64,000 nt of DNA from Candidatus Limnocylindrales bacterium. GTDB lineage: Bacteria; Chloroflexota; Dormibacteria; CF-121. The stretch lies in NCBI GenBank assembly GCA_035632635.1, contig DASQGL010000068.1, positions 10,895 through 74,894 on the forward strand, given 5' to 3'. Under the pieces are notes generated by a model that was not told the DNA's origin, made no database searches, and was given only the letters and a program-made list of their open reading frames with translations. The position numbers and the translations under genes are program-made. Positions 23,849 to 59,581 of this stretch are shown in pieces (within the stretch, counting starts at the first letter, position 1; each line of letters begins with the position of its first letter).

Positions 23849-23855
23849 GCTCGGA

Positions 23856-41850: not shown

Positions 41851-41867
41851 GGCCGCCCGCGATTCGA

Positions 41868-44533: not shown

Positions 44534-45802
44534 ATGCGCGTCGCTCAACGTCCCCGTGGGACGCAGGACATCCTGCCGGCCGAGCAACCGTACTGGCTCG
44601 ACATGACGCGCACCGCCGAGGCGCTCGCCGCGGCGGGGGGCTACCAGCGGATCGATACGCCGATCTTCGAGGCCACCGAGTTGTTCGTCCGCACCGCCGG
44701 CGATACCTCCGACCTCGTGACCAAGGAGATGTACACGTTCGTCGATCGCGGCGGCCGCTCGATGACCCTGCGCCCGGAGGGAACGGCGCCGGTGGTCCGG
44801 GCGTATTTCGACGCGGGCTTTCACCGTGAGCGCCAGCCGGTGCGCCTCTACTACGTCGGCCCGTTCTTCCGCTATGACCGGCCCCAGGCTGGCCGCTTTC
44901 GACAGTTTCATCAGTTCGGCGTCGAGGTGATCGGCGATCCGAGTCCGGACCTCGATGTGGAGGTCATCGCGCTCGGTTGGGATTGGTACGCGCAGCTGGG
45001 CATCCGGGGTGTGAGCCTGCAACTGAACAGCATCGGCGACGCCGAATGCCGGCCGCGCTACCGCGACGCGCTGCGCCAGTACTACCAGCCGTACCTGCAG
45101 ACGCTCGCGGCGGAGGACCGAGCGCGCTTTGAGCGCAATCCCCTGCGACTCCTCGATTCCAAGGATCCGGATTCCGCGGCCCTCCACGCGGGGTCGCCGC
45201 AAACCCTCGATTTCCTGTGTCCGGCATGCCGCGAGGCGTTCGAACGGGTGCAGGCCGGGTTGCGAGGGCAGGGGATCCCGTTCACGATCAACCCGCGTCT
45301 GGTCCGGGGTCTGGATTACTACACGCGCACCGCGTTCGAGTACTGGCACGAGAGCCTGAGCGGGGCGCAGAATTCGCTGGGCGGCGGAGGCCGGTATGAC
45401 GGCCTGGCCCAGGATCTCGGCTATCCGTCGACCCCGGGCGTCGGTTTCGCGCTGGGACTCGAACGGACAGCCAGCATCCTGCGAGCGGCCGGGTCGGTGC
45501 CGGGCGTGTACGGTATCGCGGTCGAGGCCGCGGCGCGCCCGGCGCTTCGGGCACTCACGCGCGAGCTGCGCGAGCGGGGAGTCGCCGTCGTGACGGATCT
45601 GACGGATGCCCGCCTGGACGCCAAGCTGAAGCGCGCCGTCCGGCTGCGGATGGCGCTGGCATTGCTGGTCGGCCTGCAGGAGGACGGGGCGGACCGCGTG
45701 ACGGTCAGAGATCTACGGGTGAAGAGCCAGCGCTCGGTTCCGCGAACGCAGCTGCTCGACAGCGTCCTTCAGGCATTGCGCCCGCGGCCGGTGCCGGCAT
45801 GA
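44534..45802 (+). CDS. hisS: Histidyl-tRNA synthetase
   Basis: GTQDILP, MTLRPEGTA and FRYDRPQAGR motifs. Confidence 0.95.
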   Translation: MRVAQRPRGTQDILPAEQPYWLDMTRTAEALAAAGGYQRIDTPIFEATELFVRTAGDTSDLVTKEMYTFVDRGGRSMTLRPEGTAPVVRAYFDAGFHRERQPVRLYYVGPFFRYDRPQAGRFRQFHQFGVEVIGDPSPDLDVEVIALGWDWYAQLGIRGVSLQLNSIGDAECRPRYRDALRQYYQPYLQTLAAEDRARFERNPLRLLDSKDPDSAALHAGSPQTLDFLCPACREAFERVQAGLRGQGIPFTINPRLVRGLDYYTRTAFEYWHESLSGAQNSLGGGGRYDGLAQDLGYPSTPGVGFALGLERTASILRAAGSVPGVYGIAVEAAARPALRALTRELRERGVAVVTDLTDARLDAKLKRAVRLRMALALLVGLQEDGADRVTVRDLRVKSQRSVPRTQLLDSVLQALRPRPVPA

Positions 45803-47604
45803 GCCTGACCGAGCGCACGCCTGGCGGCGCCCTGCGGGCGGTCGATGCCGGGACGACGGTCCAGGTCTATGGCTGGGTGCACCGTCGCCGGGACCTGGGG
45901 GGCCTGATCTTCCTCGATCTGCGCGACCGGAGCGGCATCGTCCAGGTCAAGGTCGATCCAGCCCACAAACCGGCCCACGCCGCAGCCCAGGACCTACGCC
46001 TCGAGTACGTCGTGCGGGTGCGGGGCAGGGTGGTCCGCCGTCCGGACGGAACGGAGAACCGAGAGCTGCCGAGTGGGGAGATCGAGATCGACGCGGAAGA
46101 GGTGTCCATCCTGAACCGGTCGAAGACGCCGCCATTCGCGATCAACGAAGACCGTGCGGTGGACGAGCAGCTGCGGCTTCGGTATCGCTATCTCGACCTG
46201 CGGCGGCCCCACATGGCGGCGAACCTGCGACTGCGGCACCGGGTGGTCAAGGCGGTCAGGGACTTCCTCGACCAGGAGGGGTTCACCGAGGTCGAGACTC
46301 CGGTGCTGATCCGATCGACCCCGGAAGGAGCCCGCGACTACCTGGTGCCCAGCCGGCTGCATCCGGCGCATTTCTACGCGCTCGCGCAATCGCCGCAGCT
46401 CTACAAGCAGCTGCTGATGGTGGCGGGAATGGATCGGTACTTCCAGGTCGTCCGCTGCTATCGCGATGAAGACCTGCGCGCCGACCGGCAGCCGGAGTTC
46501 ACCCAGCTCGATCTCGAGATGTCGTTCGTCCAGGAGGACGATGTGCTCGACGTGATCGAGCGCTCCTTCGGGCACGTGTGGAGGTCGGTGCTGGGGATCG
46601 AGATTCCGGTTCCGATCCGGCGGATGACCCACGCGCAGGCGATCGCCCGCTACGGGGTGGACAAGCCGGACCTTCGCTACGGGCTCGAGATCGAAGAGTT
46701 GACCCCCACGTTCAGCGAGACATCCTTCCAGGTCTTCCGGCAGGTCATCACGGCGGGGGGTGTGGTGCGCGGGATCCGGGTCCCGGGGGGCGGCTCGCTC
46801 GGACGCCACGACCTCGACGCGCTCACCGAGGTGGCGAAGGGTGCGAGGGCGAAGGGGCTGGCCTACTGGTACCGCGACGCCTCCGCCTGGCGGTCGCCGA
46901 TCGCGAAGCACTTCACCGAGTCGGAGCTCGGGGCCCTGGGATCGCGTACCCAGGCCGCGCCCGGCGACCTGGTCGTGGCGGTGGCCGACCGGGCCGAGAT
47001 CGCGGCCCCGGCGCTCGGAGCAGTCCGCAGGGCTCTCGCCGAACGGCTGGGACTGATCCCGGCGGGTCGCTTCGAGTTCGTCTGGGTCACCGACTTCCCC
47101 CTCTTCGAGGTGGCGCAGGACACGGGCGAGATCACCGCCGCACACCACCCGTTCACCTCGCCGAACCCGGCCGATCTCGACCTGATGGAGCGGGAGCCGC
47201 TCAAAGTTCGCGCGCGCGCCTATGACCTCGTGCTCAACGACACCGAGCTCGGGTCGGGAAGCATCCGGATCCACGACCCCGCGCTGCAGCAGCGGGTTTT
47301 CAAGGGCCTGGGGATGACGGAGGAGTCGGCCCGGCAGCGATTCGGCTTCCTGCTCGACGCCTTCGAGTACGGCGCGCCCCCTCACGGAGGCTTCGCCTAC
47401 GGGATCGATCGGGTCGTCATGCTGGCGGCGGGCCAGGAGACGATTCGTGAGGTGATCGCGTTTCCGAAGAACCAGCAGGCCGAGGAGCCGATGACCAGCG
47501 CGCCGGCCCCGATCGATCCCCGCCAGCTACGCGAGCTGGGGCTCGAGCTGCGCACGCCGCCCACGCGGCCCGACCAGCACCGGGATTCCCAGCAGGGATC
47601 GTAA
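45799..47604 (+). CDS. aspS: Aspartyl-tRNA synthetase
   Basis: OB-fold N-terminus, QSPQLYKQLLM, FRDEDLRADRQPEFTQLD, and a GLDR tail. ATGA overlap with hisS. Confidence 0.95.
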   Translation: MSLTERTPGGALRAVDAGTTVQVYGWVHRRRDLGGLIFLDLRDRSGIVQVKVDPAHKPAHAAAQDLRLEYVVRVRGRVVRRPDGTENRELPSGEIEIDAEEVSILNRSKTPPFAINEDRAVDEQLRLRYRYLDLRRPHMAANLRLRHRVVKAVRDFLDQEGFTEVETPVLIRSTPEGARDYLVPSRLHPAHFYALAQSPQLYKQLLMVAGMDRYFQVVRCYRDEDLRADRQPEFTQLDLEMSFVQEDDVLDVIERSFGHVWRSVLGIEIPVPIRRMTHAQAIARYGVDKPDLRYGLEIEELTPTFSETSFQVFRQVITAGGVVRGIRVPGGGSLGRHDLDALTEVAKGARAKGLAYWYRDASAWRSPIAKHFTESELGALGSRTQAAPGDLVVAVADRAEIAAPALGAVRRALAERLGLIPAGRFEFVWVTDFPLFEVAQDTGEITAAHHPFTSPNPADLDLMEREPLKVRARAYDLVLNDTELGSGSIRIHDPALQQRVFKGLGMTEESARQRFGFLLDAFEYGAPPHGGFAYGIDRVVMLAAGQETIREVIAFPKNQQAEEPMTSAPAPIDPRQLRELGLELRTPPTRPDQHRDSQQGS

Positions 47605-47713
47605 GGTCGGGCGCAATTCGCGCGGCACCCTGTAACCGGGGATTTTCGCGGCTGTTACCGGCGCGAACGCGGCGCCACCTGCGATGTAAGGTACGCAACT
47701 TACAGTAGTGCCC

Positions 47714-48592
47714 ATGAACGCCGCACTCATCAGCAAATCCGTCGGAGGGGTGGCCGTCGCCTCCGGCCTCGTGCTGGCCACGTCCGTCTGTGGATTTGCT
47801 CAGGATGCTGCCGTCGCACTCGGCGCCGCCGCCACCACGCCGCTGACCGCCCTCTATTCGAATCCGCCTGCGGGTGCGGTGACCCTCGCGGGCAAGCCGT
47901 TCGTGGTGGGCAACTTCGACTGGCTGGCCGCCGGTCAGACCGGGACGTTCGCGGCCTCGTACGCGGGGCCGACCGCGGTCTCGGTGCTGATCAACAGCTC
48001 GTATACGGCCGCCACCTACGCCGGCTACAAGGTCGGCACCGTGCAGCTCACCTTCACCGACGGAACGACCCAGTTCGTCGACCTGGTGGAGGGCAGCAAC
48101 GTCCGTGAGTGGCTGATCGGGGCCGGCAATACCGTCAACACCGTGACCGATCCGTCCAACACGAACGCGTGGACGGGCTTCAGCGGGAGCACGACGGCCG
48201 TGATCGACATGCTGACCATCGCGGTGCCGTCATCCACCAAGACGCTGGCCAGTGTGACCGTGAACAATACCGACACGACCGGATGGGGAATCCATCTCCA
48301 GGTCTACGGGATCTCGATTGCGTACACGCCGCCCGCTCCGGTGACGACGCCCGTGACCACGCCGGTGACGACGCCGGTGCCGGTGACCGGCGACCAGCAG
48401 GGTAACCACGAGGGCCAGCATCGGGACGGCGCATCCCCGAAACTGACGCCGAAGCCGCATGCGACGCCCGCGGTGCGGGTCACATCGACGACCAGCCAGA
48501 ACGACAAGCACGGCGACGCCGATCACCGGGGTGGCCCTGGCGGCCAGAACCAGGACCAGGGTGACGGCCAGCACCATCGGGACGCCGTCTAA
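47714..48592 (+). CDS. Secreted hypothetical protein with a (VTTP)3 linker and a His/Asp/Gln/Gly-rich C-terminal tail
   Basis: Signal peptide (MNAALISKSVGGVAVASGLVLATSVCGFAQDAA). TACAGT 7 nt upstream of the ATG at 47714; the GTG at 47708 is an alternative. Terminator follows. Confidence 0.6.
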   Translation: MNAALISKSVGGVAVASGLVLATSVCGFAQDAAVALGAAATTPLTALYSNPPAGAVTLAGKPFVVGNFDWLAAGQTGTFAASYAGPTAVSVLINSSYTAATYAGYKVGTVQLTFTDGTTQFVDLVEGSNVREWLIGAGNTVNTVTDPSNTNAWTGFSGSTTAVIDMLTIAVPSSTKTLASVTVNNTDTTGWGIHLQVYGISIAYTPPAPVTTPVTTPVTTPVPVTGDQQGNHEGQHRDGASPKLTPKPHATPAVRVTSTTSQNDKHGDADHRGGPGGQNQDQGDGQHHRDAV

Positions 48593-48606
48593 ACACTGAA
48601 GTCCAG

Positions 48607-48639
48607 GAGGCCCGGCCGGCGCCGGGCCTCTTCTTTTTC
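48607..48639 (+). terminator. Rho-independent terminator
   Basis: Perfect 10-bp stem gaggcccggc/gccgggcctc with loop cggc, followed by ttcttttt. Confidence 0.65.
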
Positions 48640-49011: not shown

Positions 49012-49362
49012 GTGCAGGGCGTGTGGCAATGGGGAGTGCTGCTGCTGGGTGTCGGTTTCTTCTTGCTCAGCCTCGTCGCCTGCTATATCCTGCTCAACCT
49101 GACCCGGAGCCTGCGGACCGTTGAAGCGATCCTGGCCGTGACCCTCGATGAGGTCAAGGTCGCCCTCCCGGAGATGCGCCACAGCGTGGTCCAGATCGAC
49201 GACATGGTCACCAGCGTGAACGAGAAGTTCATGGCGGCAGATCGGGCGGTGGATGCGACCGGGGCCGCGATCACCGGGTGGCGCGACCGGCTCCGGGAGC
49301 GCTTCGACGGTTTGTCCGCCTGGACCAGGAGCCGGGGCGGCAAGAAGGAGAACAGCGTATGA
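49012..49362 (+). CDS. DUF948-like membrane protein (N-terminal TM + helical domain)
   Basis: 116 aa, ATGA-coupled to the downstream anti-sigma gene. AGGAGG upstream but distant. Confidence 0.55.
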   Translation: MQGVWQWGVLLLGVGFFLLSLVACYILLNLTRSLRTVEAILAVTLDEVKVALPEMRHSVVQIDDMVTSVNEKFMAADRAVDATGAAITGWRDRLRERFDGLSAWTRSRGGKKENSV

Positions 49363-49856
49363 AGGAGAGCCACAGCCGGGCGCACAGCGCGCCAACCGGG
49401 CATGTCCAAACCCCCGCCGCCGCCTCCGCCGCGCTCATCACCGAGATGAAGCTGCCCGCGGTCGAGGACTACATCCTGGCGGCGAAGCGGGCAGCCGGCG
49501 CCCTCGGCCTCGTGGTCGGCTTCTCGCTGCAGGAGATCGATGAACTGAACATCGCCGTGACCCAGGCTTGCGAGAACGGGATCGCGGCGGCCAACGAGCA
49601 ATGGGGTCGCGGCAACGGACAGCTCAAACTGCTCTTCAAGACCCAGCCTCGCCGCCTCGAGGTCGAGGTGCGCAGCGTTCCGCCCCGGGCGGTGGAGCTG
49701 CAGCAGGCGGTTCGCCAGGCCCGCCGCGAACAGGAATTCGACTACGAGACGGTTGGCGTCAATATGATCCGTCTCTTCGTCGATGAGCTCCGGTACCATC
49801 GGGACCATCAGACGGGAGTCATGCGGATGAGGATGGTCAAATACCTGATCGAGTAG
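49359..49856 (+). CDS. RsbW/SpoIIAB-like anti-sigma factor with degenerate ATP-binding motifs
   Basis: The N-terminus aligns with RsbW (EDYILAAKRAAGALG...DELNIAVTQACENGI). The DxGxG and GxGL boxes are not recognisable. AAGGAG SD 8 nt upstream. Confidence 0.7.
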   Translation: MKESHSRAHSAPTGHVQTPAAASAALITEMKLPAVEDYILAAKRAAGALGLVVGFSLQEIDELNIAVTQACENGIAAANEQWGRGNGQLKLLFKTQPRRLEVEVRSVPPRAVELQQAVRQARREQEFDYETVGVNMIRLFVDELRYHRDHQTGVMRMRMVKYLIE

Positions 49857-49984
49857 CCCGTCCGGCTTCGCAACCGACCGTTCGTCCCAACCGCGATCTC
49901 GCCCGCCGGCTTTTCCTCAAGTACCAGAAGACCAGGGATCCGAAGGTCCGCCAGCAGCTGGTCGAGCTCTTCAACAACCTGGTC

Positions 49985-50635
49985 GTGTTCCTGGCCAAGA
50001 AATTCCAGAACCGCGGTGAGCCCCTCGAGGACATCGTGCAGGTCGGGTATATCGGCTTGCTCCAGGCCATCGAGCGGTTCGAGCCGCAGCGGGATCTCGA
50101 GTTCTCGACCTTCGCCACGCCGACCATCGTGGGCGAGATCAAGCGCTACTTCCGGGACAAGAGCTGGGCGGTGAAGGTGCCCCGTCGCCTCCAGGAGACG
50201 ATGCAGAAGGCCGACCTGGCGCAGCAACGCCTCCAGGCACGCCTTGGCCGGCAGCCCTCGGTTGCGGAGATCGCGAAGGAGCTCGACCTTCCGCCCGAGG
50301 AGGTGCTCGCCGCCCAGGAGGCGAGCCCGGCTCAGCACACCGTCTCCTTCGAGAGCACCGGGCCGGCCGCCAGTGACGAGGATGGCCTGCAGCTGACCGA
50401 ACGCCTGGGCCGCGAGGACGAGAACCTGGACAAGGTCGAGCTGAAAGACCTGCTCGACCAGGCGATGGCGCACCTGACGCCGCGGGAACGGCGGATCATG
50501 TACCTGCGGTTCGTCGACGAGCTCCCCCAGGCGGAGGTCGCGAAACGGCTCGGAATCTCCCAGATGCACGTGTCCCGGCTCCAGCGGGCTGCGGTCGAGC
50601 ACCTGAAGCGAGAGCTGCCCGTCTCCGCCCGCTGA
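49985..50635 (+). CDS. RNA polymerase sigma factor, SigB/SigF (group 3) type. 49985 (GTG) is the first canonical start; region 1.2/2.1 is encoded upstream from about 49860.
   Basis: Regions 2–4 present: FSTFATPTIVGEIKRYFRDKSWAVKVPRR, and region 4 LGISQMHVSRLQRAAVEHLK (as in B. subtilis SigB). Confidence 0.85.
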   Translation: MFLAKKFQNRGEPLEDIVQVGYIGLLQAIERFEPQRDLEFSTFATPTIVGEIKRYFRDKSWAVKVPRRLQETMQKADLAQQRLQARLGRQPSVAEIAKELDLPPEEVLAAQEASPAQHTVSFESTGPAASDEDGLQLTERLGREDENLDKVELKDLLDQAMAHLTPRERRIMYLRFVDELPQAEVAKRLGISQMHVSRLQRAAVEHLKRELPVSAR

Positions 50636-50696: not shown

Positions 50697-53240
50697 ATGA
50701 CAAGCGCCGAGATCCGCCAGCGTTTTCTCAACTTCTTCAAAGAGCGGGACCACCAGGTGCTGCCCAGCTCCTCCCTGATCCCGTTCGATGATCCGACCCT
50801 GTTGTTCACGAGCGCCGGCATGGTCCAGTTCAAGCCGTACTTCCTCGGGCAGAAGACCCCGCCCTATCCCCGCGCGGTCACCGTCCAGAAGGTGTTCCGC
50901 ACCGTGGACATCGAGGTGGTCGGGCACGACGGCCATCACCTGACCTTCTTCGAGATGCTGGGCAACTTCTCGTTCGGCGACTACTTCAAGGAGAAGGCGA
51001 TCCCCTACGCCTATGAGTTCCTCACCCGTGAGCTCCAGCTCGATCCGGAGCGCCTGTGGGCCGGCATTCACGAGGAGGACGATGAGAGCTTCGACATCTG
51101 GGTCCGGACCGGCATTCCGCCGGAGCGGATCCGCCGCTTCGGCGATCAGTACAACTTCTGGGCGGCCGGCCCGACCGGCCCCTGTGGTCCCGACTCGGAG
51201 ATCCATTACGACTGGGGCGAGGAATACGGGTGCGGCCGGCCGGACTGCGGGCCCAACTGCGAGGACTGTGACCGCTTCCTCGAGATCTGGAACCTCGTCT
51301 TCATGCAGTGGGACCGTGACGAGAGCGGCACCCGCAGGCCCTTGAAGCGGAAAGGGATCGACACCGGGATGGGGCTGAACCGGATCACCCAGGTGGTCAG
51401 CGGGAAGCGCAGCGTCTTCGAGACCGATATGTTCACGCCGCTCATCGCCCACTTCGAGCACCTGGCCGCGAAGTCGTACGGCTCGAGCCCCGAGGTCGAC
51501 GTCTCGCTGCGCGTGCTCGCCGATCACAGCCGGGGGGCGTCCATGCTGGTCGCGGACGGGGTGGTCCCGTCGAACGAGGGGCGAGGCTACGTCTTGAGGC
51601 GCCTGATTCGTCGCGCCATGGTCCACGCCCGGCGGCTCGGGACGGGGGAGGGCCTCTCGTCGGCGGTTCCGGTCGTCGAGGAGCTGCTGGGCGAGGCCTA
51701 TCCGGAGCTGACCCAGAAGAGCCGGCAGATCGCACAGACGCTTCGCGCGGAGGAAGATCGATTCGCGATCGCCCTGCGCGCCGGGATGGAGCGCCTCCAG
51801 GGCCTGCTCGACCAGGGCCGGCTGACCCCCGAGGAGGTGTTCTACCTCCACGACACGCTCGGCTTCCCGATCGAGCTCACCCGGGAGCTTGCCGCCGAGC
51901 GGGGCATCACGGTCGACATGGCGGCCGTGGCGGCGCTGATGCAGGGACAGCGAGAGCGCAGCCGGGGCGCCGGTGGTGCCTTCCAGGGACCGGTCGCGAA
52001 GACCGCGACGCGGTTCATCGGCTATGACGGCCTGGCGGCCGACACCGTCATCAGCGAGCTCTTCGAGGTGTCGGGGACGCCGGACCAGGCTGACGTCTTC
52101 CTGGAGGAGACGCCCTTCTACGCGGAGCGCGGCGGGCAGACGGCGGATGCCGGCTGGCTGACCTGGAGCGGTGGGGAGGGGGAGGTGCTCGACGTCCAGG
52201 CCCAGGGCGAGGCGATCCGGCACCGCGTCCGGATCAAGGGGCGGCGGCCCGGCGAACGCGAGCCGGTCCACGCGGAGGTCGACCGCCCGCGCCGGATGGC
52301 CGTCGCGCGGCACCATTCCGCGACCCACCTGCTGCACCGGGCCCTGCGCCAGGTGCTCGGCGAGGAGGCGACCCAGGCCGGCTCCGCCGTCCTCCCCGAG
52401 CACGCCACCTTCGACTTCCGGTTTCCCCGCGCGCTCACCCCACAGGAGCTGGATCGGGTCGGAACCCTGCTCAACGACAAGATTCGCGAGGACCTGCCCC
52501 GGCGCGTCGAGGAGATGCCGCTGCAGGAGGCGGTCCGCAGCGGCGCGGTCGCCCTCTTCGACGAGAAGTACGGGGAGCGGGTCCGGGTGGTCTCCTTCGG
52601 CGACTGGGCCCGGGAGCTCTGCGGGGGCACCCACGTCGAGCGAAGCGGCCAGATCGGCCTGGCGCTGCTCTCATCCGACCGGTCGATCGGGACCGGGATC
52701 CGGCGGATCGAGATGCGGGCGGGCGAGGCCGCCTATCGCCAGGTCCGGATGGAGGAGGGGGTGCTGCACCGTCTGGCCGAGGCGCTCAAGGGCACGCCCC
52801 TGGAGCTCCCCGGGAAGGTCGAGACGCTCCAGGGCGAGCTCAAGCGCCTGGAGAAGGAGGCGGCCACCCTCAAGCAGCGGCTCGCCACGGGCGGCGCCGC
52901 CCGGGTGGACGAGGCCGAGGTCTCGGGCGTGAAGATCCTGCTCCAGGTCGTCGATCCCGACGAGCGGGACCTGAAAGTGTACTTCGATCACCTGCTCCAG
53001 CGGGCGCCCAAAGGCGGGGTGGCCCTCGTCGTTGGCGGGCAGCGCTACGCGGTCAAGGTGGGCGGGCTCAACGGCCGCCTCCAGGCCAACGATGTGATCC
53101 AGGCCTTCCGCCAGGTGGTGGGGGGCAAAGGGGGCGGGCGCGGCCCCGTCGGGGAGGGTGGAGGCATCGATCCACAGCGCGTGGCGGAGGGCTTCCGGTC
53201 GATCCAGGCGCTCGTCCTTCAGCGGCTGGGGGGCGCCTGA
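50697..53240 (+). CDS. alaS: Alanyl-tRNA synthetase
   Basis: FTSAGMVQFKP motif, editing domain (HSATHLLH, CGGTHV), and a C-terminal DHHA1-type tail. Confidence 0.95.
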   Translation: MTSAEIRQRFLNFFKERDHQVLPSSSLIPFDDPTLLFTSAGMVQFKPYFLGQKTPPYPRAVTVQKVFRTVDIEVVGHDGHHLTFFEMLGNFSFGDYFKEKAIPYAYEFLTRELQLDPERLWAGIHEEDDESFDIWVRTGIPPERIRRFGDQYNFWAAGPTGPCGPDSEIHYDWGEEYGCGRPDCGPNCEDCDRFLEIWNLVFMQWDRDESGTRRPLKRKGIDTGMGLNRITQVVSGKRSVFETDMFTPLIAHFEHLAAKSYGSSPEVDVSLRVLADHSRGASMLVADGVVPSNEGRGYVLRRLIRRAMVHARRLGTGEGLSSAVPVVEELLGEAYPELTQKSRQIAQTLRAEEDRFAIALRAGMERLQGLLDQGRLTPEEVFYLHDTLGFPIELTRELAAERGITVDMAAVAALMQGQRERSRGAGGAFQGPVAKTATRFIGYDGLAADTVISELFEVSGTPDQADVFLEETPFYAERGGQTADAGWLTWSGGEGEVLDVQAQGEAIRHRVRIKGRRPGEREPVHAEVDRPRRMAVARHHSATHLLHRALRQVLGEEATQAGSAVLPEHATFDFRFPRALTPQELDRVGTLLNDKIREDLPRRVEEMPLQEAVRSGAVALFDEKYGERVRVVSFGDWARELCGGTHVERSGQIGLALLSSDRSIGTGIRRIEMRAGEAAYRQVRMEEGVLHRLAEALKGTPLELPGKVETLQGELKRLEKEAATLKQRLATGGAARVDEAEVSGVKILLQVVDPDERDLKVYFDHLLQRAPKGGVALVVGGQRYAVKVGGLNGRLQANDVIQAFRQVVGGKGGGRGPVGEGGGIDPQRVAEGFRSIQALVLQRLGGA

Positions 53241-54508
53241 TGCTGAAGCTCAAACAGCGGTTCAAGCGGATGCGGCGAGGCCAGGAGTACGCCAACCTCT
53301 ATACGGCGCTCGATATCGGGACCGAGTACATCAAGGCGCTCGTGGTGCGCCGGGAAGGCCGCAACGGCGTCGTGCTGGGCGCCTCGCGGGAGCGTCAGGC
53401 GTTTGCCGACATGCAGGCGGGTGTGCCCTCCGACATCCAGGGCATCATCGAGACCTGCGACAGGGCGATGTCCCGGGCGGAGGACATGTGCGACACGATC
53501 CCGGGCCAGGCCGTGATCGGGATCGCCGGCGAGCAGGTCAAGGGGTTCAGCACGTCGGTCACCGTGCCGCGGGCGGACCCGCAGCTGAAGATCAACGAGG
53601 TCGAGCTGATGCAGACGCTGCAGCTGGTCGAGAAGCGGGCCATGCGCGAGGCGCGCCACCTGATGAGCCTCGAGCTGGGCGTCCCCGACGTCGACGTCAA
53701 GCTGATCAACTCGGCGATCACCAACGTCCGGATCGACGGGTTCGCGGTCACGAACCCACTGGATTTCCAGGGCAAGCAGATGATCGTCACGGCTTTCAAC
53801 ACCTTTGCGCCCCTGACGCAGATCGGCGCCCTGCAGACGATCGCGTCGGAGCTGGATCTCGAGCTGGTGGCGGCCGTCGCGGAACCGTATGCGATGGCGC
53901 GCTGCGTCGCGACCGACGAGGTCTATGACTTCGGGGCCATCTTCATCGACATCGGCGGGGGCACGACCGATGTCGCGCTCGTGCGCAACGGCGGCATCGA
54001 GGGAACGCGGATGTTCCCGATCGGGGGCCGGGTCTTCACGAAGAAGCTGGCCGCTCGCTTCAGCCTGTCCTTTCAGGACGCCGAGGCGGTCAAGCTCCGG
54101 CATTCGAAAGGCGAGCTGCCCCAGGGGCAGGAGGAGCGGGTGCGCCAGGTGCTGTCGAAGGACGCAGAGGTCCTGGTCGAGGGTGTCGCGATCACCCTCC
54201 AGGAGATGGCGAAGGGCGATCGGCTGCCCCACGCGATCTACCTCGCCGGAGGGGGAAGCGCCCTGCCGGAGGTTCGCCAGCAGCTCGAGGCCTTCGAGTG
54301 GACCCGGCTGCCGTTCGGGCGTGCCCCGGTGATCGGCGTGCTCCGGCCGCAGGACGTGCGCGGCATCTACGATTCGACCGGGTTGCTCCTCGACCAGCAG
54401 GACATCACGCCCATGGGGCTCGCCTTCCACGCCATCCAGCAGGGCGCCGGCGAGGACGGCCCCCTGCACACGGTCATGCGCAAGGTCCTCAAGGCGATGA
54501 AGGTATGA
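53240..54508 (+). CDS. Actin-fold ATPase, divergent FtsA/PilM-like
   Basis: Phosphate-1 ALDIGTEYIKALVV, phosphate-2 IFIDIGGGTTDVALV, adenosine motif IYLAGGGSALP. 422 aa. Not in a division/cell-wall cluster context. Confidence 0.7.
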   Translation: MLKLKQRFKRMRRGQEYANLYTALDIGTEYIKALVVRREGRNGVVLGASRERQAFADMQAGVPSDIQGIIETCDRAMSRAEDMCDTIPGQAVIGIAGEQVKGFSTSVTVPRADPQLKINEVELMQTLQLVEKRAMREARHLMSLELGVPDVDVKLINSAITNVRIDGFAVTNPLDFQGKQMIVTAFNTFAPLTQIGALQTIASELDLELVAAVAEPYAMARCVATDEVYDFGAIFIDIGGGTTDVALVRNGGIEGTRMFPIGGRVFTKKLAARFSLSFQDAEAVKLRHSKGELPQGQEERVRQVLSKDAEVLVEGVAITLQEMAKGDRLPHAIYLAGGGSALPEVRQQLEAFEWTRLPFGRAPVIGVLRPQDVRGIYDSTGLLLDQQDITPMGLAFHAIQQGAGEDGPLHTVMRKVLKAMKV

Positions 54509-54557
54509 GCGCCGAAGGTTACACCGTAACCGCTCGACAGACGATGCCGTTTGCGGT

Positions 54558-56222
54558 ATGACTGACGGCGGCGAGCGACCGATCTTGGCGACGGAGAGTG
54601 AAATGAAGACGCTGGCGAAGTTGCTCTACGTGGAGGCGGACGAGGAGGTGACTGACCTCGTCGACCGGCTCCGCGCCCTCCAGGACGAGGACGCGGTCAG
54701 CTTTGTCGTGCCCGATCGGGCCCGCGCGCTCCAGAGCCCGATGTCGTTCCGGCTGCTCAAGCGCTACGCCGACGCCTACGGGAAGCACGTGAACCTGATC
54801 AGCTCGGACCCGCGCCTCCAGGCGCTGGCGCTGGAGTCCGGCTTCTCCGCCTACCCGACGCTCGCCGCCTACGAGTCCGGGGCGGAGGTCCACCGTCCGG
54901 GAGAGAGCGCCGACTCGGCCCAGGCGGAAGGGCCGGTTGGGGCGGCGGCTGCCGTCGCGGTCGCCGAGCCGGTCCTGGCCGGCGTCGCCGAGTCCGCCGC
55001 TCCGCCGTACGCCCGGACCCGGACGCAGGACGTCGTCTCCGCGCCGCCGCGCAAGCCGGTGGCCGCGCCCGCGGACCGCGGGCGGGTCGTCAAGCCTCCG
55101 CGCGACAGGCGGCTGTTCGCGATCGGCGGGGGCGTCGTCGCGCTGCTGGCGCTCGTCTTCGCGGTGCTGTTTGTGCCCACGGCCGACGTGCGCCTGACCG
55201 TGACTGGGACGCCGCTCAAGACCGACATGCAGCTGATCGGGCAGCCCAACCCGGTGTCGGGCACGATCGACCACTTCCCAACCCAGGCGATCAGCGCCAC
55301 GGAGAGTCTCACCGCGCAGGGCACCGCCACCGGTCAGAAGCAGATTCCGGCGATAGCGGCGACGGGCCAGGTGGTCTTCAAGAACAACTCACACTTCGTC
55401 GTTCAGTTCCCACGCAATACCGAAGTAGGCGCCGGAGGAAATGTGAGATTCCGGACGCAGGCCGCGACCGAGTTCCTCTTACCGGGTAGCTCCTCCAAGA
55501 GCATTCCGATTACGGCCGAGAACGCCGGCGCGAGTGGCGACGTCGCTGCAAACGCGATAACGATCATCTATCCGACGGATCAGACTCAAGACTTCGCCGT
55601 CAACAATGCGCAAGCGACCGGCGGTGGTGCCGATCAGCGCGTCGCCACGGTCATCCAGCAATCGGACATCGATGCCGTGAGCCAGGCGCTCACCTCGCAG
55701 CTCAACCCGAAGGTCCAGGACGACCTGAACGGCAAGGCGAAGGGGCAGCACCTGATCGCCCCGGACCAGCCGAAGGTTCAGACACAGACGGATCACCAGC
55801 TGGGCGACGAGACCGCGAACTTCAACATGACCATGACGATCACGGCGAGCGGCGTCACCTTCGACAACGCCCAGGTCACCAGGCTGCTGCGCGACGCGCT
55901 CCAGCGCAAGGTGCCGGTCGGCTCGCAGCTGCTCCAGGACCCGCAGCAGACCTCCTACGACGTCGCCCAGGCCACAAGTGACGGCAACGTGACGCTCAAC
56001 GGCCACGCGTCCGGCTACACGGTGATCGTCTTCTCCCAGGAGGCGATGCGGGCGCACATGAAGGGCCACTCGCCGTCGTCCGCACGGGCGTTCCTGCAGG
56101 GCCTGCCGAACGTGGTCGACGTCAACCTGCGCCAGGATCCGATCGGCCTCCCGTGGCTGCCGTTCTTCTCCTCCCACATCACGATCCACATCCAGGAGGT
56201 CACCGGGACCGCGTCTCCGTGA
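54558..56222 (+). CDS. Single-pass membrane protein: N-terminal cytoplasmic α/β domain, A/P-rich linker, TM, and a ~330-aa T/Q/N-rich extracytoplasmic β-rich domain
   Basis: TM LFAIGGGVVALLALVFAVLFV at ~aa 200. Follows the FtsA-like gene 49 nt downstream. GTGA-coupled to ruvX. Confidence 0.6.
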   Translation: MTDGGERPILATESEMKTLAKLLYVEADEEVTDLVDRLRALQDEDAVSFVVPDRARALQSPMSFRLLKRYADAYGKHVNLISSDPRLQALALESGFSAYPTLAAYESGAEVHRPGESADSAQAEGPVGAAAAVAVAEPVLAGVAESAAPPYARTRTQDVVSAPPRKPVAAPADRGRVVKPPRDRRLFAIGGGVVALLALVFAVLFVPTADVRLTVTGTPLKTDMQLIGQPNPVSGTIDHFPTQAISATESLTAQGTATGQKQIPAIAATGQVVFKNNSHFVVQFPRNTEVGAGGNVRFRTQAATEFLLPGSSSKSIPITAENAGASGDVAANAITIIYPTDQTQDFAVNNAQATGGGADQRVATVIQQSDIDAVSQALTSQLNPKVQDDLNGKAKGQHLIAPDQPKVQTQTDHQLGDETANFNMTMTITASGVTFDNAQVTRLLRDALQRKVPVGSQLLQDPQQTSYDVAQATSDGNVTLNGHASGYTVIVFSQEAMRAHMKGHSPSSARAFLQGLPNVVDVNLRQDPIGLPWLPFFSSHITIHIQEVTGTASP

Positions 56223-56650
56223 GGATCCTCGCGATCGATCCGGGCAGCGTCCGCCTCGGGCTTTCCCTGAGCGACCCCTCCGGTGTCATCGCGCAGCCCC
56301 TTAAGGTGCTCCGCCGGCGCTCTCCGCAGGAGGACCTGGCCGCTCTCAAGAAGCTCGTCGACGAGTACCGGGTCGAGCGGATCGTTGTGGGCCTGCCGCG
56401 ATTGATGAATGGTACCCTGGATGTCGCGGCGCGGGATGCGCAGGCATTTGGCGCGCAGGTGGAACGGGCGACCGGGACGCCGGTGGCATACTGGGACGAA
56501 CGCCTGACCACGGTGGCGGCGGAACGGCACTTGATCGCACAGGGCGCCCGCCGGCACAAGCGCCGGTCGAGCGTCGATGAGGTCGCGGCGACGCTGTTGC
56601 TGCAGGGATACCTCGATTACCAGGCTGGCCGCAGGGAAGGAGACGGATGA
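56219..56650 (+). CDS. ruvX: Holliday-junction resolvase-like RuvX/YqgF
   Basis: GTG start gives (M)RILAIDPGSVRLGLSLSD; RNase H-like fold. The listed ORF start at 56153 is over-extended. Confidence 0.9.
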   Translation: MRILAIDPGSVRLGLSLSDPSGVIAQPLKVLRRRSPQEDLAALKKLVDEYRVERIVVGLPRLMNGTLDVAARDAQAFGAQVERATGTPVAYWDERLTTVAAERHLIAQGARRHKRRSSVDEVAATLLLQGYLDYQAGRREGDG

Positions 56651-56937
56651 TGCCACAGGGAATCGAACCAAACGGCGAAGTCCAGACCATCGAGCTGGTC
56701 AACGAGAAGACCGGCGAGGAGGAGAGCTACCTGGTCCACGACGTCGTCGAGATCGAGGGAGAGACCTACTACGTCCTGCAATCGGAGACGGACGAGGAGC
56801 GCGTCCTCATCCTGCGGCGTGACGGCGAAGCGCTGGTCACACTCGACGAGGAAGAGCACGATCGGGTCGTCGAGCAGCTCGAAGCCTTCGAGGAGGAGGA
56901 GGACGATCTGGAAGAGGACGGCGAGGCCGACGACTGA
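56647..56937 (+). CDS. DUF1292 (YrzB-like) acidic protein
   Basis: 96 aa with an E/D-rich tail. Conserved ruvX–DUF1292–mltG order. Confidence 0.75.
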   Translation: MMPQGIEPNGEVQTIELVNEKTGEEESYLVHDVVEIEGETYYVLQSETDEERVLILRRDGEALVTLDEEEHDRVVEQLEAFEEEEDDLEEDGEADD

Positions 56938-56962: not shown

Positions 56963-58042
56963 ATGACCGCCTCGCCGCGTTCGTCCGGTGGGATGCGGGC
57001 TCCCATGCCCCGCTCCCGGGGCCGGACCTGCTTGCAGCTCGTCCTGGTGCTCCTCTTCCTCCTGCCCGCCATGATCGGCATCCCGGCCGTGATCGGGTAC
57101 GCCTACGTCGATCACCAGCTCCATCAGCCGGCCAACCCGGGCAGCAACAAGGCGCGTTTCGTGATCCCGCCGGGCGCGTCCTTCGCCCAGGTGGCCGAGA
57201 CGCTCCACCAGGTCGGCCTCATCGACAACCCGCTGGTGTTCCGGCTCTACGCGCGATACAGGCACCTCGATCGGACCGTCGAAGCGGGCGCCTATCAGCT
57301 CAGCCACAACCTGAACATGCAGCAGATCCTCACGGCACTGCAGACCGCCATCCCTGAGGAGATCTTCATCACGATCCCCGAGGGTTTCACGATCCAGAAG
57401 ACCGCCCAGAAGCTCGACCAGGGCGGGCTGATCAAGGGCCAGGACTACCTCGATCTGGCCCAGCATGGCCAGTTCAACTACGACTTCCTGCAGGGCCGGC
57501 CGCCCGGGTCGAGCCTCGAAGGCTTCCTCTTCCCGGAGACCTACCTCGTGCCGCGCAACGCGACCGCCCGGCAGCTGATCACCCTCCAGCTGGACGAGTT
57601 CGGCCGGAACTGGACGGCAGCCCGCAAGGCGGAGGCGGACAAGCGCAAGCTGACCGTGCTTCAGATCGTGACGCTCGCCTCGATCATCGAGCGCGAGGCC
57701 CGCTTCGACGCCGACCGGCAGCTCGTGGCCAGCGTCTTCTACAACCGCCTTGCGATCAATATGCCGCTCCAGGCGGATGCCACCGTGCTCTACGCAAAGG
57801 GGGTCTGGCAGTCGAGCGTGACGCTCGATGACCGCAAGGTCGACTCCCCCTACAACACGTATCTGCATGCGGGGCTTCCTCCGGGACCGATCGCGAACCC
57901 CGGACTCAAAGCGATCGACGCCGCGCTCGAGCCGGCGCAAAGCACCTACCTCTACTACCTCTCCGACCCCCAGGGACACAACCACTACGCCACCACCTAC
58001 GACCAGTTCGTCCAGCTCCTCCACCAGTACGGCCTCCAGTAG
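56963..58042 (+). CDS. mltG: Endolytic murein transglycosylase MltG (YceG-like)
   Basis: N-terminal TM, a LysM-like region, and FPETYLV...LYA...YNTY motifs. Confidence 0.9.
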   Translation: MTASPRSSGGMRAPMPRSRGRTCLQLVLVLLFLLPAMIGIPAVIGYAYVDHQLHQPANPGSNKARFVIPPGASFAQVAETLHQVGLIDNPLVFRLYARYRHLDRTVEAGAYQLSHNLNMQQILTALQTAIPEEIFITIPEGFTIQKTAQKLDQGGLIKGQDYLDLAQHGQFNYDFLQGRPPGSSLEGFLFPETYLVPRNATARQLITLQLDEFGRNWTAARKAEADKRKLTVLQIVTLASIIEREARFDADRQLVASVFYNRLAINMPLQADATVLYAKGVWQSSVTLDDRKVDSPYNTYLHAGLPPGPIANPGLKAIDAALEPAQSTYLYYLSDPQGHNHYATTYDQFVQLLHQYGLQ

Positions 58043-58076: not shown

Positions 58077-58898
58077 GTGCTGTTGCTGGGCGATTCGGCG
58101 AGCGCCGCCTACTCCGCCCGCCTGCACAACGCGGCTTTCGAGGCGGCCGGGCTCCCGGCGCGATTCGAAGCCCGGCGGGTGCGCCCCCACGAGTTGAAGG
58201 CGACCGTGGATGCGCTCCGGCAGGACGGTGAGCTCATGGGGGCCAGTATCACCGCTCCCTTCGGGACCGCGATCATCCCGTTCCTGGACGGGCTCGGGCC
58301 CGAGGCGCGTGCCTGCGGCAGCGTGACGACGCTCAGTTACCGGGCCGGGGCGCTGGTGGGATGGAACACGGATGGCACGGCGTTCTTGCAGGCGCTGGAG
58401 GACGCCGAGATCGACGCCGACGGCCGCGACGTCGTCATCGTCGGGGCCGGCGCGGCCGCCCGCAGCATCGCCAGCGTGCTGCGCGATTCCGCCCAGCGGG
58501 TCTGGATCGCGGCCCAGGACCTGGGGCAGGCCGAGCGCCTCTGCCAGGACCTCCAGATCGCGGCCGGCGGGGCGGTGGCGATGGATGCCCTGCCGCTCAT
58601 CCTGCGCAAGGCGACCCTCGTGATCAACGCCACCCCGGTGGGAGGGGACGGGCATAGCCTCGTGTTCCCGGTCCAGTGGCTCCGGGCGAACCAGGTCGTG
58701 ATCGACCTGCTGTACAATCCGCCGCTGACCCCGTTGGTCCGGAGCGCCCGCGGCCGGGGCGCCCGGGCGATCAACGGGCTGACCATGCTGCTGCACCAGG
58801 GCCTTGCCTCGTTCGAGATCTGGACCGGCTCTCCGGCCCCCGAAACCGCCATGCGCGCCGCGCTGGAGCGGGCCGCGGTGCTGGGCCCGGCCACATGA
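58077..58898 (+). CDS. aroE: Shikimate dehydrogenase
   Basis: LHNAAFEAAGL, GWNTDGTAF, VVIVGAGAAARS and LLYNP motifs. GTG at 58077. Confidence 0.85.
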   Translation: MLLLGDSASAAYSARLHNAAFEAAGLPARFEARRVRPHELKATVDALRQDGELMGASITAPFGTAIIPFLDGLGPEARACGSVTTLSYRAGALVGWNTDGTAFLQALEDAEIDADGRDVVIVGAGAAARSIASVLRDSAQRVWIAAQDLGQAERLCQDLQIAAGGAVAMDALPLILRKATLVINATPVGGDGHSLVFPVQWLRANQVVIDLLYNPPLTPLVRSARGRGARAINGLTMLLHQGLASFEIWTGSPAPETAMRAALERAAVLGPAT

Positions 58899-59581
58899 GC
58901 CGGCTGCTGGTTGCGGCGGGCTGGGCGGGGGCGGGGTTGCTGGTCGGCCTCGCGGTCAACGTCTTCTCCTCATGGCAGGCCGGGATCGAGGCCAGATCCG
59001 ATCCCGAGCTCGATCCGGTGATGCGGCCCTGGGAGGTCGCGATCGCCCCGGCACTCTGTGCCGCGCTGTTCGGCATCTTCGCCTGGCGGATCGGATGGGG
59101 CGTGCTCCTGCTGATCGACTCGGTCTACGTCGCCATCCTGGTCCAGGTTTTCGCCTTCGACCTCAAGCACCGCTATATCCTCGATGTCGTGATGCTGCCC
59201 GGCTGGCTCGTCGCCCTGGCCCTGGCGTTCGTCACGCCCTGGACCCCCGGACTCAGCTGGCCCGCCCCGGACTGGCGCACCGCGGTGCTCGCGGCGGTGA
59301 TCGCCGGTCTGGTGTTCTTCGTCCTCTTCTTCGTCGGGACCTGGATCTTCGGCCAGGAGGCCTTCGGCTTCGGCGACGTCAAGCTGGCGGTGTTCATCGG
59401 CCTGTGCACGGGATTGACCGACCTGCGGATGGTGCACGCGCTGCTGGCCGGCGTCTACATCGGCGGGGCGGTGGCGGTGATCCTGCTCCTCACCCGCCGG
59501 GCCCGCATGCGCCAGGCGGTTCCCTATGGCCCCTTCCTGGTTGCCGGCACCGTTCTGACCCTCCTGCTCCAGCGGCCATGA
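58895..59581 (+). CDS. A24-family prepilin peptidase (peptidase domain only)
   Basis: 8-TM protein with the two catalytic Asp regions, including FGFGDVKL. ATGA overlap with aroE. Confidence 0.8.
   Translation: MSRLLVAAGWAGAGLLVGLAVNVFSSWQAGIEARSDPELDPVMRPWEVAIAPALCAALFGIFAWRIGWGVLLLIDSVYVAILVQVFAFDLKHRYILDVVMLPGWLVALALAFVTPWTPGLSWPAPDWRTAVLAAVIAGLVFFVLFFVGTWIFGQEAFGFGDVKLAVFIGLCTGLTDLRMVHALLAGVYIGGAVAVILLLTRRARMRQAVPYGPFLVAGTVLTLLLQRP

Follow-up and report, generated by a model that had tools for sequence, protein, structure and literature searches.

FtsA with FtsN or ZipA, MreB-RodZ, PilM-PilN, the phage baseplate wedge proteins and the PASTA-type kinases are the described systems closest to two adjacent genes, here named A and B, of the window (the whole stretch of 64,000 nucleotides analysed). 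The product of A resembled FtsA (TIGR01174 / PF14450) in its fold from end to end, its ATP motifs and its C-terminal amphipathic helix and, like FtsA with FtsN or ZipA, was paired with a single-pass protein whose cytoplasmic N-terminus faces it. Unlike FtsA, it fell under the equivalog threshold and was encoded outside the dcw cluster, not beside ftsZ. Where FtsN has a short tail and a SPOR domain, B combines a folded cytoplasmic domain of 97 aa with a baseplate-like ectodomain.

In architecture, B came closest to the partner protein of MreB-RodZ, a system which, like A-B, is linked to wall-synthesis enzymes. RodZ has a folded N-domain binding an actin-like filament, a linker, one transmembrane (TM) helix and a beta-rich outside domain, and B is laid out alike. 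However, A belongs to the FtsA class (Foldseek E 1e-30, vs about 1e-10 for MreB) and B displayed no RodZ-type HTH or DUF4115 signature, the likeness being one of logic only. In PilM-PilN (TIGR01175 / PF11104), an FtsA-like gene likewise lies immediately upstream of the gene for a bitopic protein, PilM binds this neighbour, and PilM was the second-best structural match to A. B differs in having neither the PilN peptide motif nor the PilN/PilO fold, with no pilOPQ or pilus genes, and A has a predicted membrane-targeting helix, whereas PilM has none of its own.

The baseplate wedge class (PF04865) encompasses the Mu gp47, P2 gpJ and T4 gp6 class and the diffocin/PVC 'triplex' proteins. In contrast to these, B is cellular, membrane-anchored, encoded in a housekeeping operon and equipped with a cytoplasmic domain, and it was not accompanied by genes for a sheath, a tube, a spike or any other part of a baseplate. 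PASTA-type Ser/Thr kinases (PknB class) offer an analogy for a B-family fusion protein (P0438) in which a B-type ectodomain follows the TM helix of a cytoplasmic kinase, but that ectodomain is not PASTA and the B of the window has no kinase.

Locus layout and the products of A and B

The pair was located in the following block:

49278-49856, + strand: RsbW/SpoIIAB-type anti-sigma kinase (PF13581)
49985-50635, + strand: SigB/F-type sigma factor (Sigma70 r2/r3/r4)
50697-53240, + strand: alaS, alanine--tRNA ligase (TIGR00344 794.6 bits, PF01411 6e-171)
53240-54508, + strand: gene A, divergent FtsA-family actin-fold ATPase, 422 aa (PF14450 FtsA 1e-14)
54603-56222 (most likely start), + strand: gene B, predicted bitopic (N-in/C-out) membrane protein, 539 aa (ORF, Shine-Dalgarno sequence, AF2 model)
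56219-56650, + strand: ruvX (YqgF) (PF03652 7e-41, TIGR00250 120 bits)
56647-56937, + strand: small acidic DUF1292-like ORF (PF06949 E 0.009, weak, below cut-off)
56963-58042, + strand: mltG, YceG-family endolytic transglycosylase (PF02618 5e-84, TIGR00247 211 bits)

An ORF check of the window confirmed both A and B on the + strand at the coordinates first reported for them, as the two co-directional genes that the original prediction had placed between alaS and ruvX. Their GC3 values (0.92 for A, 0.89 for B) were of coding type, and GC content and GC3 were like those of the neighbours. Among the predicted flanks, alaS, ruvX and mltG were recovered by profile, while DUF1292 was matched only below cut-off; this ORF, whose start overlaps the ruvX stop, was nevertheless 77-95% conserved in Dormibacterota loci. 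Overlaps joined the alaS stop to the A start (TGATG) and the B stop to the ruvX GTG start (GTGA, 56219-56222), and no credible internal terminator was found within the alaS-A-B-ruvX stretch. With these operon-like junctions and the shared direction, A and B are probably co-transcribed, together with ruvX as had been proposed, and translational coupling to alaS and ruvX is predicted for the pair.

The genes for the anti-sigma kinase and the sigma factor immediately preceded alaS, and no STAS antagonist gene adjoined them. The sigma gene was found upstream in 36 of 37 informative loci and was missing in L033, L036 and L040.

Features of gene A were as follows:

53309-53347, + strand: phosphate-1 motif LDIGTEYIKALVV, aa 24-36 (sequence)
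53939-53983, + strand: phosphate-2 motif IFIDIGGGTTDVALV, aa 234-248 (sequence)
54233-54268, + strand: adenosine-binding motif AIYLAGGGSALP, aa 332-343 (sequence)
54461-54505, + strand: C-terminal amphipathic basic helix PLHTVMRKVLKAMKV (predicted membrane-targeting sequence)

A is a member of the FtsA/PilM class and, as anticipated, a canonical member of neither family by HMM thresholds or context. It scored 105 bits against TIGR01174, the NCBI FtsA equivalog model (cut-off 175.85), with model positions 2-270 of 371 matched, and 41.8 against TIGR01175 pilM (cut-off 133); the Pfam PilM_2 match (5.8e-9) was above the gathering score. The top PDB sequence match was FtsA (1.6e-16). The AF2 model (pLDDT 89, pTM 0.88) matched FtsA structures over their full length (Foldseek E 1e-30, TM up to 0.84); PilM came second (E 1e-24 to 1e-20), and EutJ and MreB also ranked lower. 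All three actin-fold ATP motifs noted earlier were present and intact, with D25 and G27 of phosphate-1 invariant across lineages and G337, G338 and G339 of the adenosine-binding motif also invariant. Since the phosphate-2 motif was degenerate in two lineages (DVGAATTQ, DIGSSSTH), ATP turnover may be dispensable to the function of A. The C-terminal helix, kept in distant homologues, displayed the second highest hydrophobic moment in A (0.74) and was modelled at residues 408-419 behind a flexible hinge of low pLDDT.

Gene B was divided as follows:

54603-54893, + strand: cytoplasmic alpha/beta N-domain, aa 1-97 (AF2 model; near-invariant)
54894-55112, + strand: disordered Ala/Pro-rich cytoplasmic linker, aa 98-170 (pLDDT below 50; hypervariable)
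55017-55055, + strand: short linker motif TRTQDVVSAPPRK, family consensus DRPREASVVSAPPK (column conservation)
55113-55178, + strand: single TM helix LFAIGGGVVALLALVFAVLFVP (hydropathy peak 2.75; helix in model)
55179-56222, + strand: extracytoplasmic domain, baseplate wedge homologue (J/gp47/gp6, 'triplex')
about 55302-55634, + strand: Pfam Baseplate_J core of the ectodomain
56145-56201, + strand: conserved C-terminal motif GLPWLPFFSS

The predicted order of an N-terminal alpha/beta domain, an Ala/Pro linker, one TM helix and a beta-rich outside domain was borne out, but not the start at 54558, where the longest ORF begins. The true start is most likely the ATG at 54603, preceded 5 nt upstream by a Shine-Dalgarno sequence (GGAGAG); all B orthologues open with MKTLAKLLYVE, and B matched an NCBI entry of 539 aa at 100%. 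The N-domain, modelled as four beta-alpha units (pLDDT 80-87), gave no specific support to the receiver or flavodoxin-like fold once suggested. STAS was its best compact match, a weak one that sequence comparison did not bear out (1 of 20 members, at E 0.08), with S, N, G or T at the phosphosite-equivalent position; no sequence-level family was recognisable for this domain. Within the linker, V144 (86%), S146 (91%) and P149 (97%) stood out from surroundings at 25-45% in 36 full-length sequences. Exactly one hydrophobic TM segment was found, and B is predicted N-in because its N-terminal side is rich in Arg/Lys. The ectodomain (beta-rich, about 340 aa, modelled with confidence as was the N-domain) had been described as an anonymous T/Q/N/G-rich region; it is a Baseplate_J/gp47-type domain, overlooked at the time, and is homologous to the wedge proteins in the baseplates of phages and contractile injection systems (CIS). 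As expected, B matched neither FtsQ/DivIB nor PilN/PilO by HMM or by fold.

Conservation of the pair

The alaS-A-B-ruvX-mltG order was kept in 32 genome loci and in all 70 informative metagenome loci. The block opened with alaS, with A directly downstream in 69/70 informative metagenome loci; B with its N-domain followed A directly in 70/70 A-seeded metagenome loci, and A preceded B in every genome locus of sufficient length to show the order. RuvX was encoded next after B in 53/53 informative loci, and mltG, the cell-wall enzyme of the block, was found in 35/37. The arrangement also occurred in distant lineages (43-75% GC) whose B was only 23-32% identical. B-family forms devoid of the N-domain, i.e., a tandem short form and the Ser/Thr-kinase fusion P0438, had no FtsA-like neighbour, and presence of the N-domain in B thus coincided with an adjacent FtsA-like gene.

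Across Dormibacterota, A was 78-89% identical. Median identities there of A (80%) and of the B N-domain (78%) were higher than those of AlaRS (70%), RuvX (73%) and MltG (69%), while the B linker (35%) and ectodomain (45%) were lower. This pattern fits a strongly constrained cytoplasmic complex and a fast-evolving exposed domain. In a mirror-tree/partial Mantel test, which bears on the A-B contact, the B N-domain could not be told apart from the ectodomain.

The pair, found in related genomes when these were profiled, held up as a conserved module against the idea of a lineage-specific acquisition. The term insertion, used originally, did not: the pair is fixed and old in this lineage of Dormibacterota/Chloroflexota-type bacteria. 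It is an insertion only against the gene order of Firmicutes and Actinobacteria. A vertically inherited two-gene module inside a housekeeping operon, alaS-A-B-ruvX-(DUF1292)-mltG, is the best explanation. Linkage to mltG also occurs in genomes without A-B, and operon context is therefore weak evidence for a wall function. The A-B pairing was described in no paper found in the literature searched. Automatic database names were 'cell division FtsA domain-containing protein' (A) and 'baseplate J/gp47 family protein' (B), and 'undescribed' applies to the function and the pairing, not to the sequences of A and B.

Proposed role and rival readings

By analogy with FtsA-FtsN, MreB-RodZ and PilM-PilN, A-B may form a trans-membrane scaffold coupling an internal filament to the cell envelope, most likely for cell-wall growth or division, a reading to which we give a probability of about 50%. 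A would probably lie on the inner membrane face through its C-terminal amphipathic helix, probably self-assemble as FtsA does, and dock on the near-invariant N-domain of B, possibly also on the short linker motif. The ectodomain of B would be an exapted homologue of the wedge fold, an oligomerising scaffold in baseplates, and the module would link a membrane-bound cytoplasmic filament to an outer domain that oligomerises or touches the wall.

Less probable, though a serious contender, is that A is the sole FtsA of the lineage, a Z-ring tether moved from the dcw cluster, and B a lineage-specific divisome partner standing in for FtsN, FtsQ or ZipA-type proteins, which would make the module an ordinary divisome. 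FtsA topped the HMM, PDB sequence and fold matches, the C-terminal helix of A is of FtsA type, and conservation above AlaRS suits an essential protein. No second FtsA-like gene was seen in the fetched loci, an absence that says little because these span only about 10 kb either side. Against this reading stand the partial, sub-threshold TIGR01174 match (105 vs 175.85, positions 2-270 of 371 only) and the position of A, beside ftsZ or ftsQ in 0 of about 120 loci. The adjacency of ftsA and ftsZ in Chloroflexota proper (PMC10608941), therefore expected in the sister lineage too, also argues against it. Whether a canonical ftsA also lies beside ftsZ in these organisms bears on the choice between A as a paralogue with a new role and A as the FtsA of the lineage. 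It is unlikely that A-B serves a type IV pilus, Tad or secretion machine as a PilM/PilN-like platform in the inner membrane, with A clamping the cytoplasmic N-terminus of B and the outer domain building a periplasmic machine part. This reading is favoured by the PilM_2 match, by the rank of PilM structures, by a prepilin-peptidase-family (A24) gene four genes downstream of A-B in the window and by TadE genes upstream in L042. However, the TIGR01175 score was far below its cut-off, no locus had pilN, pilO, pilP, pilQ, pilB, pilC or pilin genes in the block, and B, without a PilN/PilO Pfam match, begins with a folded domain rather than a PilN-type peptide. The A24 peptidase also follows aroE in genomes without A-B, as in the gene order of Mycobacterium tuberculosis.

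We hold it quite unlikely that B is a trans-membrane sensor, with its STAS-like N-domain as the missing antagonist of the upstream RsbW-type kinase/sigma pair, its ectodomain sensing an envelope cue and A an accessory scaffold. The kinase/sigma pair, kept upstream in 36/37 loci, has no STAS gene beside it, and P0438, where the same ectodomain is joined to a Ser/Thr kinase, shows that this domain can work as a sensor. But sequence comparison gave no STAS signal (1 of 20 members, at E 0.08), the phosphosite-equivalent residue varied, A-B was present in the three loci missing the sigma/anti-sigma pair, and the obligatory FtsA-like partner would be left unexplained. That B, and possibly A, is a prophage/CIS remnant or a phage-related defence or receptor element in the operon by chance is highly improbable and effectively refuted by synteny, the position being identical in lineages of 43-75% GC. 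The whole window consisted of housekeeping genes; no phage or defence genes neighboured A-B, no other tail or CIS genes occurred in the window or any locus, and GC and GC3 fit the neighbours. The pair had no relatives in 2.9 million viral contigs and no PADLOC match, and phage wedge proteins lack the TM helix and cytoplasmic domain of B. As for the B family at large, the P0438 fusion shows that the ectodomain can act as an extracytoplasmic module joined to different cytoplasmic partners.

Architecture of the gene A and gene B products

Two genes, encoding an FtsA-like actin-fold ATPase (gene A) and a single-pass membrane protein (gene B), lie between alaS and ruvX in the following layout:

Directly 5' of gene A: alaS (TIGR00344, 795 bits)
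53240–54508, + strand: gene A, FtsA-like actin-fold ATPase, 422 aa
54603–56222, + strand: gene B, membrane protein, from its likely start codon
55017–55055, + strand: conserved motif of the gene B linker, TRTQDVVSAPPRK in the window, about 20 residues before the transmembrane (TM) helix
3' of gene B: ruvX (PF03652, 7e-41)
After ruvX: small acidic DUF1292-like ORF (E 0.009, below the Pfam cut-off)
Downstream of the DUF1292-like ORF: mltG/YceG (5e-84)

The gene A product matched FtsA most closely in both sequence and structure. Its ORF was found where the original prediction had placed it, with all three of the actin-fold motifs quoted there (aa 24–36, 234–248 and 332–343). Pfam assigned the protein to FtsA (PF14450, 1e-14, 55.4 bits, above the gathering score of 31.8), with further matches to PilM_2 (PF11104, 6e-9, partial and restricted to aa 229–350) and MreB (5e-8). 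It scored below the curated equivalog cut-off of the NCBIfam ftsA model TIGR01174 (105.1 vs 175.85 bits, the match spanning only model positions 2–270 of 371), as well as below those of PRK09472 (51.7, cut-off 409) and of the pilM model TIGR01175 (41.8, cut-off 133). The best PDB sequence matches were genuine FtsA (7q6d, 1.6e-16, residues 20–289), followed by EutJ, PilM and MreB. An AlphaFold model built from a 16-sequence alignment (pLDDT 89, pTM 0.88) displayed the FtsA-type subdomain arrangement 1A-1C-2A-2B of the actin/Hsp70 fold and was matched end to end by Foldseek to FtsA of Vibrio, E. coli, Xenorhabdus, Thermotoga maritima and Staphylococcus aureus (about 390–414 columns, E 1e-30 to 1e-23, target TM-score 0.73–0.84), ahead of PilM (1e-24 to 1e-20), EutJ (1e-14) and MreB (1e-10).

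The C-terminal 15 residues of A, PLHTVMRKVLKAMKV, come after a flexible hinge of Gly, Asp and Glu and were modeled as a helix (residues 408–419). The hydrophobic moment of TVMRKVLKAMK within this segment, 0.74, ranks second in the protein. Retained in distant homologues, this amphipathic helix is arranged like the membrane-targeting sequence of FtsA and MinD, so that a membrane-targeting role is predicted. Given the modeled fold and helix, A is an FtsA by structure, yet neither by sequence equivalog nor by gene context: as had been proposed, A lies far from the division cluster, no ftsZ or dcw gene being found in the 64-kb window, nor in about 120 related loci, where A always stands between alaS and B.

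The phosphate-2 motif of A, otherwise DIGGGTTDVAL, was degenerate in two lineages (DVGAATTQVAL and DIGSSSTHIAL; L034:8642–9904 and L041:8742–10004, P0464), where the rest of A, its partner and the synteny were retained. These proteins may be ATPase-dead scaffold versions, and their pattern of retention hints that scaffolding rather than ATP turnover could be the conserved activity of A.

Gene B was predicted to begin downstream of the start first assigned to it. The longest ORF, 54558–56222 (554 aa), does exist on the + strand as described, but the most likely start is the ATG at 54603 (539 aa), since a GGAGAG Shine-Dalgarno sequence lies 5 nt 5' of it and none precedes 54558, all orthologues share the N-terminus MKTLAKLLYVE, and NCBI lists the identical protein with 539 aa. 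The model of B (pLDDT 73 overall, 80–87 in the N-domain and about 90 in the ectodomain) comprised a compact alpha/beta N-domain (residues 5–92), a disordered Ala/Pro-rich linker (residues 102–177), one TM helix, which is the sole hydropathy peak, and a multi-domain, beta-rich C-terminal region (about 340 residues). Because an Arg/Lys cluster immediately precedes the TM helix, the N-domain is predicted to be cytoplasmic and the large domain extracytoplasmic.

The outer domain is of the Baseplate_J/gp47 type, which the original prediction had missed. It matched PF04865 (41.6 bits, above the Pfam gathering score of 21.1), a baseplate wedge family of PHROGs (2e-8, the wedge subdomain being the only part matched), Mu gp47 in a PDB profile search and, with Foldseek, the baseplates of phi812, cyanophage A-1(L), Mu, phiCD508 and Milano (6e-7 to 3e-4). 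Homology to the wedge-protein core was thus found in both sequence and structure. A GLPWLPxFSS motif at the C-terminus was conserved throughout the family. The otherwise hypervariable linker holds one conserved short motif (consensus DRPREASVVSAPPK), with S146 and the second proline, P149, conserved at 91% and 97% and neighboring columns at 25–45%. The motif could be a peptide to which A binds or a site of phosphorylation. Longer members of the B family displayed no additional cytoplasmic domains beyond Baseplate_J.

Synteny and constraint across lineages

The proteins of the window matched, at full identity, entries of a MAG labeled Candidatus Limnocylindrales. Relatives of A and B carried the labels Dormibacteraeota or Chloroflexi in database entries, and distant members with names were labeled Dormibacteraeota, Chloroflexota or Limnocylindrales, a few cluster names being probably mis-binned. 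Among 32 species-representative genome loci, all those of sufficient length had the order sigma factor-alaS-A-B-ruvX-DUF1292-mltG-aroE-prepilin peptidase. Metagenomes were scanned with peptides specific to the A family, which gave more than 600 places (569 of them confirmed); the 80 loci kept form a sample free of bias towards B. In the informative loci of this sample, B with its N-domain directly followed A in 70 of 70 cases and alaS directly preceded A in 69 of 70, while ruvX followed B in 53 of 53, mltG was present in 35 of 37 and a sigma factor lay upstream of alaS in 36 of 37. The placement between alaS and ruvX, for which profiling of the pair had been suggested, thus recurs in related genomes and metagenomes.

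An exhaustive profile search of the B family returned 8,370 clusters (50% identity) at E <= 1e-3 and 467 at E <= 1e-30. The order alaS-A-B-ruvX(-mltG) was retained in distant lineages spanning 43–75% GC (fetched loci L033, L034/35, L036, L040, L041 and L042), L037 showing at least A-B, and the B ectodomain, where alignable, was 23–32% identical to that of the window. In the low-GC lineages, alaS encoded short products lacking the DHHA1 C-terminal domain (567 aa at L040:5153–6856 and 638 aa at L036:6281–8197, vs 847 aa in the window), and in L040 two small genes (one of 146 aa, one a NUDIX hydrolase) lie between alaS and A.

B-family members without the N-domain had no FtsA-like neighbor. Locus L043 encodes tandem short forms of 371 and 374 aa (L043:5339–7616), with TM helix and ectodomain, adjoining trp-biosynthesis and NADH-dehydrogenase-type genes. 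P0438 (874 aa; L038:2349–4973 and L039:774–3398) is a fusion of a Ser/Thr protein kinase, a TM helix and a Baseplate_J-like ectodomain. To all appearance the ectodomain is a module that can be moved between proteins and works outside the cytoplasm, used in P0438 as PASTA domains are in PknB-type kinases. The joint occurrence of the N-domain and the FtsA-like gene is the main, indirect support for an interaction between A and the N-domain.

The original prediction called the pair an insertion. This is fair relative to the phyla of Bacillus subtilis, where the order is alaS-yrzL-yrrK(ruvX)-yrzB(DUF1292)-yrrL(mltG), and of Mycobacterium tuberculosis, where it is alaS-ruvX-mltG-aroE-(A24-like)-...-aroC-aroK-aroB-aroQ-efp-nusB and A-B is not known to occur; judged by synteny, the pair is fixed and ancient in the sampled lineages.

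Median identities to the window proteins within Dormibacterota were 80% for A and 78% for the B N-domain, compared with 73% for RuvX, 70% for AlaRS and 69% for MltG, and fell to 45% in the B ectodomain and 35% in the linker. By these identities, the cytoplasmic pieces appear to be under unusually strong and similar constraint, and the exposed part of B appears to evolve fast. As A is more conserved than AlaRS across a whole uncultured phylum, a core function is argued for. Mirror-tree correlations were high for every gene of the block (r 0.93–0.96), and partial Mantel correlations with A were similar for the N-domain (partial r 0.62) and the ectodomain (0.58), so that the two were not separated.

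Stop and start codons overlap at the junction of alaS with A (TGATG), at that of B with ruvX, through an in-frame GTG of ruvX at 56219 (GTGA, as originally noted), and at that of ruvX with the next ORF. Third-position GC of A (0.92) and B (0.89) was like that of neighboring genes, without compositional break. No credible terminator was found from alaS to mltG, the sole match there being a 5-bp stem inside B; the search gave 3 matches in all, fewer than the 4.2 expected from shuffling. Upstream, at 48605–48632, lies the region's strongest terminator-like hairpin (12-bp stem, 9 GC pairs).

A possible trans-envelope system and its alternatives

Several known identities were considered for B and rejected. 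Comparison of 20 diverse N-domains with Pfam, and of their profile with PDB, gave only noise for STAS (PF01740), and the N-domain displayed neither family membership by sequence nor a conserved phosphorylatable Ser as in anti-sigma antagonists. FtsQ/DivIB, with POTRA and FtsQ beta domains after one TM helix, was discarded as no FtsQ or POTRA signatures were found. For PilN/PilO there was no Pfam match, B has a folded N-terminal domain instead of the PilN peptide, and no pilus genes occurred in the block in any locus. The resemblance to RodZ (folded cytoplasmic domain, TM helix, beta-rich outer domain) is architectural only, with no HTH or DUF4115 Pfam match and an alpha/beta N-domain rather than a helix-turn-helix. 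A prophage or defence origin was likewise rejected: neither A nor B matched PADLOC, relatives of B were absent from 2.9 million viral contigs, and PHROGs matched the wedge subdomain only. A soluble virion protein of a phage tail or contractile injection system (CIS) cluster does not fit the housekeeping context of all loci, the TM helix and the cytoplasmic domain.

Pairings in which an actin-like protein holds a single-pass membrane protein by its cytoplasmic end organize division (FtsA), elongation (MreB-RodZ) and pilus assembly (PilM-PilN), FtsA-FtsN and PilM-PilN being nearest in logic to A-B. The pair appears to be an actin-like ATPase with a bitopic partner of unprecedented type and, if so, would be the fourth such pairing. 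A would attach to the inner membrane face through its C-terminal helix, probably self-assemble like FtsA, and dock on B at its N-domain, at the conserved motif of the linker, or at both; B would carry the organization of A across the membrane to the baseplate-wedge-like ectodomain. Since the baseplates of phages and CIS use the wedge fold as a scaffold that oligomerises, the ectodomain may form rings or arrays, or touch the wall. A role in wall growth or division would agree with co-transcription with mltG; alaS, ruvX and mltG are linked even in genomes without A-B, and the linkage thus gives weak support to a wall role.

That A, an FtsA by structure, could be the only FtsA of the lineage and B its divisome partner is unlikely, if a serious contender. 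In Chloroflexota proper, ftsA adjoins ftsZ (PMC10608941), for which reason we tentatively prefer to read A as a paralogue. A bolder reading, to which we give a probability of about 0.22, is an unrecognised trans-envelope cytoskeletal system, in which a dedicated docking domain would tie a membrane filament of FtsA-like protein firmly to an exapted phage-baseplate wedge protein forming a ring or lattice outside the membrane. This paralogous system, beside the canonical divisome, would be the main organiser of shape or division in Dormibacterota and in uncultured Terrabacteria related to them. It might also be an ancestral occupant of the alaS-ruvX-mltG operon, lost by Firmicutes and Actinobacteria.

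The sequences of A and B are already in databases under automatic names only. A literature search returned no paper combining FtsA with baseplate J, and the Baseplate_J/gp47 papers found dealt with phages or eCIS only. Labels such as 'FtsA domain-containing' and 'baseplate J family' would hide a core function, the second pointing falsely to a prophage, and a phage-tail baseplate fold in a chromosomal housekeeping envelope protein would bear on the exchange of structural modules between phages and cells. Dormibacterota are an uncultured phylum abundant in soils; we know of no data on their cell biology, on which the pair would offer a testable handle.

Other genes of the window

The window carries housekeeping genes (fakA, degV, recG, smc, ftsY, ffh, topA, rpsB-tsf-pyrH, uppS, cdsA, dxr, rseP, ispG, proS, relA, hisS, aspS and efp), and no pilus, phage-tail or CIS genes were found in its 64 kb. 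A pair of ORFs at 44534–47604 (422 and 601 aa), considered as a paralogous copy of A and B, proved to be hisS and aspS, dissimilar from A and B. At 49278–50635, directly 5' of alaS, lie genes for an anti-sigma kinase (RsbW/SpoIIAB type) and a sigma factor (SigB/F type). A STAS antagonist is not encoded next to them, and they are preceded by a DUF948 gene. The stretch 47708–48632 holds a 294-aa ORF without Pfam match, whose product has a hydrophobic N-terminus, a repeat of TPVTTPVTTPVTTPV and a tail rich in His, Gly, Asp and Gln; the hairpin at 48605–48632 follows this ORF.

Between relA and hisS, 41835–44513 encodes an 892-aa signalling protein (dCache_3-HAMP-GAF-GAF-GGDEF). A prepilin-peptidase-family (A24) membrane protein gene (58676–59581) follows aroE, whose ORF it overlaps, and nearly all related loci have it in this place; as an A24-like gene has the same position in Mycobacterium too, it is considered independent of the A-B pair. 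Finally, in the 711-aa ComM/Mg-chelatase-like ORF at 23847–25982, the ChlI domain begins only at residue 229, reflecting either an over-extended start or an unannotated N-terminal extension.
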